Positions 33,967 through 35,975 of a DNA stretch of 64,000 nucleotides are shown piece by piece. The stretch's first letter is position 1. Each line of letters opens with the position of its first letter. A program made the translations under genes and the position numbers. Under the pieces are notes generated by a model. That model saw only the letters and a program-made list of their open reading frames with translations. It ran no database searches and was not told where the DNA came from. The DNA is taken from assembly GCA_029558515.1 (NCBI GenBank), contig JAKQEM010000014.1, positions 5,759-69,758 of the forward strand, read 5' to 3'. The stretch is from a bacterium. Lineage in GTDB: Bacteria > Patescibacteriota > Gracilibacteria > Peribacterales > Peribacteraceae.

Positions 33967-35007
33967 ATGCTTCCCCTCGCCGATCGCATCGCGCAGGCAA
34001 ATGCCCTCCTCTCCCCGCTGGCGGTGCCCCATGAGGGGAGATTGGGACGCAGGGTGCAGGAACCCGAGGATACCGTGCGGTTTCCGTTTCAACGTGACCG
34101 CGACCGCATCATTCACTCCACGGCGTTCCGGCGCCTGCAGGGGAAGACGCAGGTATTTGTGACGGGCGAAGACGATCACGTCCGCACGCGGTTGACCCAT
34201 ACGATGGAAGTGGCGCAGATTGCGCGCGATCTGGCACGAGCGCTTCGTCTCAACGAAGATCTCGTCGAGTGCATCGCGCTGGCGCATGACCTGGGCCATC
34301 CGCCGTTCGGACACAGCGGCGAAGACGCGCTGGACGCGTGGATGAAGCAGCACGGTGGACACTTCGAACACAACGAACAATCCTTCCGCGTGCTGACGCT
34401 CCTGGAAAAGCACGCGACCTCTGTGCCGGGACTCAACCTCCATCGGGAAGTGGAAGAAGGAGTGCTGAAACACTCGGAGACGATTCGACATTCGCTGGAA
34501 GCGGACATCGCCAACCACGCGGATGCCATCGCGTACCTCTCGCACGATTGCGACGACGGACTGCACGCGGGACTGCTCTCCATGGAGGCACTGATGACGA
34601 TACCGCTCGCGCGTGAGGCCGGGGAACGCGCGCTATCCCGCGGTACCTTCCTGCGCGGGGCTCTCATCGACATGATGAGCAACGACTTACTGGCGCATTC
34701 CGGGGAACACATCGTGTTCTCCCTTTCCATGCAACGAAGCATGGCTGCATTGCGCACTTTCCTCTTTGACACCCTCTACCTGCACCCCGTCGTCCGCCGC
34801 AGAGCCGAAGAAGGCAAGCGCATCGTCACGGCGCTCTGCGAGGGATTTCTGCGACGCCCCGACGACAAAATTCGAGCGCTGCACGCACGAACGGGCGGCA
34901 CTCTGCCCGAAGCGGTGAAAGATTACGTCGCAGGCATGACCGATGCTTTTGCCGGGGAACAAGCAATGGAAACCGGCTTTCTTCCCGCAAAAAAGAGGGC
35001 ATACTGA
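33967..35007 (+). CDS. dgt: dGTPase-family deoxynucleoside triphosphate triphosphohydrolase (HD domain)
   Basis: Contains RFPFQRDRDRIIHSTAFRRLQGKTQVF, DHVRTRLTHTMEVAQIARDLA, ALAHDLGHPPFGHSGE and DDGL. Confidence 0.92.
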   Translation: MLPLADRIAQANALLSPLAVPHEGRLGRRVQEPEDTVRFPFQRDRDRIIHSTAFRRLQGKTQVFVTGEDDHVRTRLTHTMEVAQIARDLARALRLNEDLVECIALAHDLGHPPFGHSGEDALDAWMKQHGGHFEHNEQSFRVLTLLEKHATSVPGLNLHREVEEGVLKHSETIRHSLEADIANHADAIAYLSHDCDDGLHAGLLSMEALMTIPLAREAGERALSRGTFLRGALIDMMSNDLLAHSGEHIVFSLSMQRSMAALRTFLFDTLYLHPVVRRRAEEGKRIVTALCEGFLRRPDDKIRALHARTGGTLPEAVKDYVAGMTDAFAGEQAMETGFLPAKKRAY

Positions 35008-35012
35008 TCCCG

Positions 35013-35975
35013 ATGAATCTCTCCCCGCACGAGAAACGGCGACATATTCGCATCATCCTCTGGGATGTGCTGCACAATGGAAAAGGAAGAGCGGGACACG
35101 CGTTCAATTTCCTGTTGATCATTTTCATTTTGATTTCCGTGGCACTGGTGCCGCTCGAATACTTCCCGACATTCGGCAGTTTTACGACGGGCGCGCACAT
35201 CCTGGAAGCGGTGATCATCGGCATCTTCACCATGGAGTACCTCCTGCGCATCTACGCCGCACCCCGTCGATTGCAGTACATCTTTTCCTTCTTCGGCATC
35301 GTCGATCTGCTCTCCATCATCCCGTTTTACGCAGGGATCTTCGGCACCGAAGCCATTCGCGTGCTGCGTCTCCTGCGCCTCTTCAAGCTGGCGGAAATCG
35401 AAGCGGCCGCCGAGAATGACGAAGCGGACGCCATGCAGCGGGGCATGCAATTGGTGGAGGGGGAATCGGTGGCATACATCGTCACCAAGAGTCCGGTCGT
35501 TCTCTTCCTCGGCGTCATTCCGCCGCTCTTCGCTCTCACGTTCGGCATCGGTCTGCTCCTGATCACGCAGGGAAATATCATCGGACTCGCACTCTCCGTC
35601 GGACTGTTCCTCTTCGCATTCATCTTCCTGTGGAAGACGTGGCTCGATTTCAGCTACGACGTTCTGTACGTCACCAACTATCGTCTGATTTTCCAAAATC
35701 AACATCTGCTGGGCCGCAGCATCAACCAAGTGCAGTTTTCGGCCATCACCAACGTCAAACCGTTTTACCCCAGCAGCATGAGTTACATTCTGCGGTACGG
35801 ATCGCTGGTCATCGATACCGCTGCAGAACACCCGGGACAAATTCGGCTGGATATGGTGCGCAGACACGAACAGGCGGCGCAAGTCATCATGCAGCGATGC
35901 TTCGCGCCGAAGATCAACGATGTTCCCGCGGCGCCTCCAGCAACGGCAACGGATCCGTCTGCGCCCCGTCCTTGA
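35013..35975 (+). CDS. membrane protein: voltage-sensor-like S1-S4 domain fused to a bacterial PH (bPH/DUF304-like) domain
   Basis: Four N-terminal helices end in an S4-like [16 protein letters not shown] segment (R/K every third residue). No P-loop or TxGYG follows. A TM hairpin comes next, then [12 protein letters not shown]...[15 protein letters not shown]....[13 protein letters not shown], typical of membrane-flanked bPH domains. The gap after dgt is 5 nt. Confidence 0.7.
   Translation: [320 protein letters not shown]

Follow-up and report, generated by a model that had tools for sequence, protein, structure and literature searches.

The stretch of DNA analysed here, referred to as the window, comprises 64,000 nucleotides of a Peribacteraceae genome (assembly GCA_029558515.1, contig JAKQEM010000014.1, positions 5,759 to 69,758 of the forward strand). 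This work concerns two adjacent genes that lie on one strand (+) in the list of open reading frames (ORFs): dgt (33967-35007, 346 aa), which encodes a dGTPase-family HD phosphohydrolase, and the gene that follows it (35013-35975, 320 aa), whose product is called VSD-bPH after its two halves, a voltage-sensor domain (VSD) and a bacterial PH (bPH) domain. The junction of the genes reads ...AAGAGGGCATAC TGA (35005-35007), TCCCG, and ATG at 35013, which leaves a gap of 5 nt, and a Shine-Dalgarno-like AAGAGGG is found 13-19 nt 5' of this ATG. An earlier, sequence-only reading had given the same spacing, and all the peptides it cited, including the S4-like segment (residues 115-130) and YGSLVIDTA, are present in the translation. 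That reading took the second product for a pore-less voltage sensor fused to a bPH domain, and suggested that the pair might be a membrane-potential sensor wired to a dNTP hydrolase. The results presented below indicate that the architecture of VSD-bPH is real and that the dGTPase/defence framing is not supported.

The N-terminal half was compared with known channels at the sequence level. Searching Pfam with the window protein yields an Ion_trans match over residues 30-127, with E=1e-15 and 58 bits (cutoff 25). This match spans only positions 3-109 of the 241-position profile, i.e., the S1-S4 part. A family profile, derived from an alignment of 49 full-length homologues, was then searched against the PDB sequences. 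The best match is the VSD of Kv2.1, with E=6.6e-15, and the listed matches to Kv2.1, Kv4, Kv3, Kv1.2 and KCNQ channels span E=6.6e-15 to 1e-5. The channels matched include Kv4.2/4.3, Kv3.1, the Kv1.2-2.1 chimera, KCNQ1/2/4, Shaker, and bacterial Nav channels such as NavAb. Every one of these matches stops within or just past S4, and the alignment with Kv2.1 takes in the pre-S1 helix and a 35-residue S2-S3 stretch. The Ion_trans and Kv2.1 values bear out the resemblance to S1-S4 that had been seen by eye, and the possibility that these were ordinary helices with chance arginines did not hold, given the significant profile similarity.

The AlphaFold2 (AF2) model of the full protein presents a mean predicted local distance difference test (pLDDT) of 90.8 and a predicted TM-score (pTM) of 0.86, with helices at residues 5-20 (S0), 25-50 (S1), 52-82 (S2), 86-108 (S3) and 114-128 (S4). 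When this model was compared with the PDB using Foldseek, only Kv and KCNQ chains were returned, with a TM-score of approximately 0.33 and a root-mean-square deviation (rmsd) of 13-17 Å. Such rmsd values indicate that the VSD alone superposes, and the 230-290-column alignments to Kv chains were for this reason rejected as evidence of a pore. An S5-P-loop-S6 pore module was looked for in the window protein and not found: Ion_trans stops at position 109 of 241, and the loop between the two transmembrane (TM) helices that follow the VSD, TM5 and TM6, has 3 residues in the AF2 model. The absence of a pore module, as claimed previously, is borne out by both observations.

Residue conservation was counted over 69 sequences, 49 from close homologues and 20 from distant homologues that are 30-37% identical to the window protein. 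In S2, all 69 sequences have E or D at the outer acidic position 65, F72 is kept in 69/69, E75 in 68/69 (the exception being a D), and R79 in 68/69. In S3, D98 is kept in 69/69. The S4 residues R116, R119, R122 and K125 confirm the basic residue at every third position noted earlier; depending on the position, a basic residue is present in 41-49 of the 49 close sequences and in 17-20 of the 20 distant ones. These values suggest the putative voltage-sensing residues are under strong purifying selection. By its predicted helix bundle, its S4 spacing and its charge-transfer centre, VSD-bPH qualifies as a VSD protein, and the profile similarity, which is well above chance, together with the model indicates that its N-terminal half is a genuine Kv-type voltage-sensor domain.

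An alternative is that the four N-terminal helices are a channel relic that serves the PH module as a membrane anchor or an oligomerisation scaffold, and that they do not sense voltage. Voltage sensing by this family is indeed a prediction from sequence, the VSD protein TMEM266 has no known voltage-dependent output (PMC13095418), and the PH half of VSD-bPH is better conserved than the VSD half. An anchor, however, would have no need to keep the full sensor set (position 65, F72, E75, R79, D98 and the four S4 basic residues), which is near-invariant in the 69 sequences and is retained across two clades at 30-37% identity. We therefore regard the relic as unlikely.

The C-terminal half required a different approach. 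Given the window protein is below the bPH thresholds, its assignment is drawn from scans of the family, profile searches and fold comparison. Against Pfam, the window protein and its isolated C-terminal piece yield GRAM with E=0.04, bPH_2 with E=0.13 and bPH_3 with E=0.16. When 24 C-terminal fragments from both clades were scanned, bPH_3 was found in 22 (best E=3.7e-5) and bPH_2 in 18 (best E=1.5e-6), and one full homologue (P0153) presents Ion_trans together with bPH_2 at 29.2 bits, above the 22-bit cutoff. For the fold comparison, residues 146-300 were modelled with AF2 from an alignment of close homologues only, which yielded a pLDDT of 86.8. The top Foldseek matches of this model are all PH, GRAM or GLUE folds (the Lam6 PH-like domain, a Leishmania domain, the MTMR2 PH-GRAM domain, the TBC1D23 PH domain and the Vps36 GLUE domain), and ranks 1-10 present an rmsd of 2.3-4.7 Å over 81-98 columns. 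The bacterial PH structure 3b77 is also among the matches, with a probability of 0.99.

A search of 1.84 billion cluster representatives with a profile of the C-terminal module yielded 1537 matches at E<=1e-3. The best non-fragment matches, approximately 45, are nearly all 290-400 aa long with the module at about residues 145-300. Judged from this layout they are VSD-fused, and those checked carry Ion_trans. The next matches are proteins with one to three bPH_2 modules; considering 85 of these at E<=1e-4, bPH_2 (PF03703) is present in 71 and cNMP_binding in 46. The profile search ties the window-type module to bPH_2 proteins at E of approximately 1e-10 to 1e-16. The cNMP group presents one to three cyclic-nucleotide-binding domains (CNBDs) followed by bPH_2 TM-hairpin/PH modules, and one of its members (P0167), from an Ardenticatenales metagenome-assembled genome, is named as a cyclic-nucleotide-binding protein. 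On profile similarity, and with the VSD-fused proteins set aside, the C-terminal half is nearest to the cNMP_binding-bPH_2 proteins. Membrane proteins with this combination form a sizeable uncharacterised group (P0167, P0172, P0174 and 43 others among P0162-P0250).

In the AF2 model the module comprises, in order, a beta strand (153-157), two TM helices (162-185 and 189-215), six strands and a helix (285-297). The PH domain thus seems to be interrupted by the TM hairpin after strand 1, and, with strand 1 placed before the hairpin, S4 is only about 25 residues away from the first structural element of the effector. In the alignments conservation is highest in the PH half. Its invariant residues in both clades include W210, D212, Y215, D216, T221, R224, G234, T246, N247, P250, G263, T269 and H285, while those of the hairpin (L164, L198 and F201) are hydrophobic only. 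A zincin-like HExxH motif in the C-terminal helix was considered and rejected, since the residues are spaced as H-E-x-A-A-H and neither E286 nor the second His is constant. Taken by fold, topology and profile homology, the C-terminal half is predicted to be a YdbS-type membrane PH module of the bPH_2 group. The hairpin and bPH domain proposed in the sequence-only reading are thus supported by family scan, fold and profile, yet the window protein taken alone remains under the Pfam bPH threshold.

At least 711 homologues of VSD-bPH exist. The best 120 of the 711 have 287-352 aa and cover 83-100% of the query. All named members are from bacteria of the Candidate Phyla Radiation (CPR). A scan with one genome per GTDB species provided 54 loci, 34 of them close and 20 from the distant clade, and the named ones among the 54 belong to Peribacteria/Peregrinibacteria, Gracilibacteria and other Patescibacteria only. 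In the 34 close loci, VSD-bPH identity is 49-80%. No relatives were found on IMG/VR viral contigs, NCBIfam holds no model for the protein, and PADLOC returned no match for it. Database annotations of members (P0085, P0090, P0128, P0161, P0273 and P0153) vary: NCBI names members from Candidatus Peregrinibacteria, Uhrbacteria and Gracilibacteria as ion transporters, one member is labelled "voltage-gated potassium channel" (JGI), and another "membrane protein YdbS with pleckstrin-like domain". Each of these names fits only one half of the protein, and, given the pore is absent, "ion transporter" and "voltage-gated potassium channel" are unsupported.

The same names would agree with a protein that is itself a conductance or part of one, be it through an Hv1-like path across the VSD, a pore made of oligomerised hairpins, or a role as the sensor subunit of a separate pore. 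Precedents can be cited for such an arrangement: Hv1 is a VSD that conducts alone (PMC13095418), PH rings of the 3DCX type have a central hole (PMC2817789), and YdbS/YdbT-like proteins have been implicated in peptide export (PMC8657885). The family itself, however, presents little of what a conductance would demand. Across the 69 sequences no acidic residue is conserved in S1, where Ser42 is invariant (69/69) and E49, at the outer end, is not conserved; this indicates the Hv1-type proton filter is absent. The F72 hydrophobic plug is intact and no S4 charge is missing, which is also the case in non-conducting VSDs; the invariants of the hairpin are hydrophobic and its loop is short, and no pore-type gene is conserved beside VSD-bPH in either clade. 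The database names, in turn, are automatic transfers from the Ion_trans match. A conductance is hence quite unlikely.

The features of the locus are presented in Table 1.

Table 1. Features of VSD-bPH and of the surrounding locus, in window coordinates.
Feature	Coordinates	Strand	Description or evidence
VSD-bPH gene	35013-35975	+	320 aa, six TM helices: VSD, TM hairpin and bacterial PH domain
Pre-S1 (S0) cytoplasmic helix, residues 5-20	35025-35072	+	AF2 helix; aligns with Kv2.1 pre-S1 in the profile alignment
Predicted VSD S1-S4, residues 25-128	35085-35396	+	Pfam, Kv profile matches, Foldseek, residue conservation
Acidic helical linker from S4 to PH module, residues 129-152	35397-35468	+	AF2 helices 132-135 and 138-145; E151 invariant in 69/69
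Beta strand 1 of PH module, residues 153-157, 5' of TM hairpin	35469-35483	+	DSSP strand 153-157 (full model), 8-12 (C-terminal model)
TM hairpin: TM5 162-185, 3-residue loop, TM6 189-215	35496-35657	+	AF2 helices; no P-loop, no selectivity filter
Predicted cytoplasmic PH-like domain, residues 217-297, six strands and C-terminal helix	35661-35903	+	Foldseek, bPH_2/bPH_3 family matches
C-terminal tail and stop codon, unconserved	35904-35975	+	pLDDT 57-59 in last two blocks; variable in 49-homologue alignment
dgt, dGTPase-family HD phosphohydrolase, 346 aa	33967-35007	+	Pfam HD, HD_assoc; TIGR01353
6S-RNA-like element, 5' of dgt	33704-33915	+	Rfam RF00013 sub-threshold; syntenic copies
Bro-N / DinD-like gene, lower G+C	32776-33651	-	Pfam Bro-N E=3.1e-9; PADLOC PDC-S13
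Class I S-adenosylmethionine methyltransferase gene	32065-32763	+	Adjoins Bro-N gene
M23 peptidase gene, convergent to VSD-bPH	35914-36792	-	Pfam Peptidase_M23 E=1.9e-22
tRNA gene	36823-36895	-	73.5 bits
Small GIY-YIG nuclease-domain ORF	36947-37279	+	Pfam

In order to evaluate the gene neighbourhood, the window proteins were searched by tblastn in all 54 loci. The gene dgt is directly 5' of VSD-bPH in 30 of the 32 Peribacteria loci having upstream sequence, with a median gap of about 32 nt between the dgt stop and the VSD-bPH start in these 30. In two Peribacteria loci (L005 and L006) dgt is missing, and the order Cu-oxidase_4 gene, 6S-like element, VSD-bPH and M23 is kept. The complete Peribacteria block comprises genes for a glycosyltransferase and an NAD(P)HX dehydratase, a Cu-oxidase_4 family gene (labelled PgeF here), a 6S-like RNA, dgt, VSD-bPH, and the convergent M23 peptidase gene, whose ORF shares 62 nt with that of VSD-bPH at their 3' ends (35914-35975). 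M23 was found in 34/34 close loci and adjoins VSD-bPH in 33/34. The Cu-oxidase_4 and glycosyltransferase genes are present in most close loci, and the NAD(P)HX dehydratase gene (CarbKin), which is less conserved, in many. In L007, L008, L014 and L016, an additional 1-3 kb separates the Cu-oxidase_4 gene from dgt, and in L016 this extra sequence follows the 6S-like element. Shortly past M23, tRNA genes are also seen in L002 and L003 and, on the opposite strand, in L004 and L010; L002 has a GIY-YIG match as well.

The distant clade presents a different context. By tblastn, dgt was found within about 6 kb in none of its 20 loci. In 13/18 loci the neighbour upstream lies on the opposite strand, where it is often DnaK, and the downstream gene is convergent in 19/20. 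Judged by eye, the neighbours (DnaK, YebC-like, pseudouridine synthase and RecX-like) look housekeeping. The convergent ORF abuts the VSD-bPH stop, or overlaps it by a few nt, in about half of the loci. In 13/20 distant loci (within L033-L053) the convergent neighbour is a protein of 500-1070 aa with no tblastn match to the window M23; by eye, it is Lys/Glu-rich and coiled-coil-like, with a Gly/Ala-rich hydrophobic C-terminal part. The convergent downstream gene was considered as a family-wide partner and rejected, given it is M23 in Peribacteria and a different protein in these 13 loci. No gene other than VSD-bPH common to the contexts of both clades was found.

The region 5' of dgt had been described as a MITE-like element (miniature inverted-repeat transposable element) at 33683-33848. 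The inverted repeat is real: its 13-nt arms (33683-33695 and 33836-33848) are 100% complementary. The region, however, matches the 6S RNA model of Rfam (RF00013) at 33704-33915 (+), with 34.9 bits against a gathering score of 46.4 and E=1.1e-5 on a 331-nt region, over the full model (1-187). Syntenic 6S-like matches present 36.6-39.6 bits (L001 4590-4745, L003 4766-4921 and L004 4550-4704). With an nhmmer profile built from four copies, 30 Peribacteria loci were seen to have the element, on the + strand. It lies shortly 5' of dgt in most of them, with about 0.6-1 kb of other sequence between in L012 and L016, and directly 5' of VSD-bPH in L005 and L006. Although the score is below gathering, the full-model match and the synteny in 30 loci indicate the element is 6S-like, rather than a formal member of RF00013. 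The inverted repeat is its apical stem, where the window copy has about 51 nt extra. Given a conserved 6S-like RNA occupies a fixed place in 30 loci, the MITE interpretation was rejected. A pair of sigma-70-like hexamers (33673-33701) stops 3 nt short of the element and a second pair (33928-33957) precedes dgt; the count of such sites is not above chance. It is possible that the element is a divergent 6S RNA of CPR bacteria, and it may share a transcript with dgt and VSD-bPH.

Two further genes separate the window from its relatives. The Bro-N gene presents a G+C of 0.46-0.53, compared with about 0.61 in its flanks, in agreement with the low G+C reported earlier, and the PADLOC defence candidate PDC-S13 matches the whole length of its product (E=3.6e-134). 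For the methyltransferase, PADLOC yields a match to the methyltransferase part of mad2 (E=6.3e-15). The 34 close loci gave no tblastn match to either of the two, a result that suggests an insertion confined to the window genome; the two genes were probably inserted between the Cu-oxidase_4 gene and the 6S-like element.

The dgt product presents Pfam HD and HD_assoc and scores 262 bits against TIGR01353 (cutoff 152), so that its assignment to the HD-domain dGTPases stands. Its best NCBIfam matches are generic PRK01286-type models, and it scores 211.7 bits against NF041026, the anti-phage dGTPase model, whose cutoff is 400; the anti-phage type is thus not supported. A PADLOC dGTPase model also matches (E=6.4e-84), yet this model has no curated cutoff. 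The context of dgt is not island-like or variable, given the block is kept in 30 Peribacteria loci and only the Bro-N and methyltransferase genes vary.

These results bear on the proposal that, in Peribacteria, dGTPase and VSD-bPH form a two-gene module in which depolarisation, caused for example by phage injection or envelope damage, would be sensed and the dGTPase activated or released, with dNTP depletion as the outcome. The two genes share a strand, an SD-like motif precedes the second, and their spacing is close both here (5 nt) and in the 30 loci (median of about 32 nt). Their adjacency holds down to 49% VSD-bPH identity and 41% dgt identity, dgt has its PADLOC match, and the PDC-S13 gene lies 300 nt upstream in the window genome. 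However, the glycosyltransferase, Cu-oxidase_4, 6S-like RNA and M23 genes are equally conserved in position (CarbKin less so), dgt is absent from the surroundings of VSD-bPH in all 20 distant-clade loci, and L005 and L006 have lost dgt while VSD-bPH stays. The dgt product is under the NF041026 cutoff and nearest to PRK01286-type models, the Bro-N and methyltransferase genes are not found near VSD-bPH in relatives, and VSD-bPH itself has neither a PADLOC match nor relatives on viral contigs. We consider this module decidedly unlikely, and the earlier suggestion of a sensor wired to a dNTP hydrolase for stress or defence is not supported, on the same grounds: dgt is limited to a lineage, sits in a housekeeping block, and is dispensed with in L005 and L006, and viral relatives were not found.

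Given the flanking genes are positioned as constantly as the dgt/VSD-bPH pair, the adjacency behaves as one inherited synteny block. The linkage whose conservation was to be verified thus holds in Peribacteria (30/32 loci) and fails in the distant clade (0/20). It is best read, from these comparisons, as an operon or syntenic order that the Peribacteria inherited, rather than as a partnership that defines the family, with dgt appearing as a generic Dgt-family gene within a housekeeping block. It is likely that dgt and VSD-bPH are co-transcribed in Peribacteria, and probable that the 6S-like RNA, dgt and VSD-bPH are one transcription unit there.

With these alternatives weighed, we find it reasonably probable that VSD-bPH and the rest of its CPR-restricted family are autonomous membrane proteins controlled by voltage, in which a complete Kv-type VSD (S0-S4) is covalently joined to a YdbS-type PH module that replaces the S5-P-loop-S6 pore. 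Its most likely function, as far as its sequence suggests, would be that of a voltage-controlled bPH_2 membrane effector. By analogy with Kv channels and YdbS-type proteins, the N-terminus, the end of S4, the linker and the PH domain would be cytoplasmic. In the mechanism we propose, a change in membrane potential would shift the four S4 charges through the F72/E75/D98 transfer centre. The motion of S4 would, via the short linker, pull on PH strand 1 and the TM hairpin, and this pull would alter the conformation or the oligomeric state of a membrane-apposed PH assembly. The altered assembly would then switch its output, which could be YdbS/YdbT-like transport or export, or the binding of a partner. 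Evolution would have set the bPH_2 membrane module as an effector under either of two channel-gating sensors, the VSD or, in the nearest relatives, the CNBD. The presence of both sensors before the same bPH_2 module suggests the module is a regulated effector rather than a passive anchor.

Published work offers partial precedents for such an effector. In the PF08000 family of soluble bacterial PH domains, pairing of edge strands gives rise to C5 and C12 rings, and DUF304 (bPH_2) has been tied to these domains by profile comparison (PMC2817789). The YdbS/YdbT-like proteins DdE and DdF are genetically required for the export of a leaderless bacteriocin (PMC8657885).

Several observations weigh against the voltage-controlled effector. 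The bPH_2 (PF03703) score of the window protein is 13 bits, against a cutoff of 22. The profile of the C-terminal module, searched against the PDB sequences, found nothing meaningful, its sole match being a nicotinic receptor TM segment with E=9.7. The ring precedent comes from soluble PF08000 proteins and not from bPH_2 membrane modules. Given no partner gene is shared by both clades, the genomic context is uninformative on the output, and the close, same-strand spacing of dgt and VSD-bPH in Peribacteria fits a real functional link. Finally, the voltage dependence, the oligomeric state and the output of the family are all predicted from sequence and models.

A broader proposal, which we put forward tentatively and hold as possible rather than probable, is that VSD-bPH proteins are the first prokaryotic voltage sensors with a non-pore effector and that, together with the CNBD-bPH_2 proteins, they represent "gated" PH assemblies. 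In these, S4 motion or cNMP would switch a complex of PH ring and TM hairpins, for the export or entry of substrates or for signalling to partners. In the ultra-small cells of CPR bacteria, such an assembly might provide a direct readout of membrane energisation, e.g., when the cell attaches to a host or leaves it. In Peribacteria, the assembly may be co-expressed with the 6S RNA and the dNTP hydrolase as a growth-arrest unit.

VSDs joined to non-pore partners are rare: they are known from phosphatases, Hv1, TMEM266 and the sperm Na+/H+ exchanger, all eukaryotic, and each has reshaped views of voltage sensing. They are treated in the literature as exceptions (PMC10620092, PMC13095418). If the present interpretation is true, a large and conserved bacterial family would extend this list to prokaryotes, and electromechanical coupling to a non-pore effector could be studied in a small system encoded by one gene. 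The family would also offer a first way in to the bPH_2 module (formerly DUF304), which is widespread in bacteria.

Full-text literature searches, with most subscription journals outside their reach, returned no paper in which a VSD from a bacterium is linked to a PH domain or any other non-pore module, which agrees with the sequence-only reading, where no VSD-bPH fusion was known. VSD-bPH would be one more non-channel protein coupled to a VSD, for which both the effector and the domain of life are new. In working principle, and by analogy, the closest known case is the family of voltage-sensing phosphatases (Ci-VSP/TPTE). Both have a single S1-S4 VSD, a short linker and a cytoplasmic effector at the membrane surface, and neither has S5-P-S6. 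The effector here, however, is a PH fold with its own TM hairpin and no recognisable enzymatic motif, whereas theirs is a PTEN-like phosphatase with C2; the sensor of VSD-bPH is nearest to Kv2/Kv4 VSDs in sequence, and the protein is bacterial (CPR), whereas the phosphatases are eukaryotic.

In comparison with six-TM Kv channels (Kv2.1, Kv1.2 and KvAP), S0-S4 are homologous, and the F-x-x-E of S2, the D of S3, the spacing of S4 and the count of six TM helices are shared. TM5 and TM6, however, are not S5 and S6, and a cytoplasmic segment of about 35 residues with a beta strand precedes TM5. Hv1 and TMEM266, which are VSD-only, and SLC9C1, a VSD-regulated exchanger, likewise have a VSD and no classical pore domain (PMC13095418, PMC10620092), and all three are eukaryotic. 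The S1 aspartate required for proton conduction in Hv1 is absent from VSD-bPH, with the equivalence to D112 judged from sequence alone. In Hv1 and TMEM266, S4 runs into a coiled coil, whereas here it is followed by the linker and PH module, and the VSD of SLC9C1 is coupled to a transporter domain.

As for the other half, the YdbS/YdbT-type bPH_2 proteins (PF03703, formerly DUF304; COG3402/COG3428), which include DdE and DdF, present the same succession of a TM hairpin and a cytoplasmic PH-like domain. They have one to three such modules and no voltage sensor. The window protein is under the PF03703 gathering score, and its family presents invariant polar residues of its own (D212, D216, R224, N238, N247, T269 and H285). 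The CNBD-bPH_2 proteins share with VSD-bPH the same bPH_2 module subfamily under an N-terminal sensor domain. Their sensor is a soluble cNMP-binding domain, present in one to three copies and usually followed by two bPH_2 modules, and the named example comes from another phylum. That the nearest relatives of the module stand under cyclic-nucleotide sensors suggests bPH_2 is a regulated effector.

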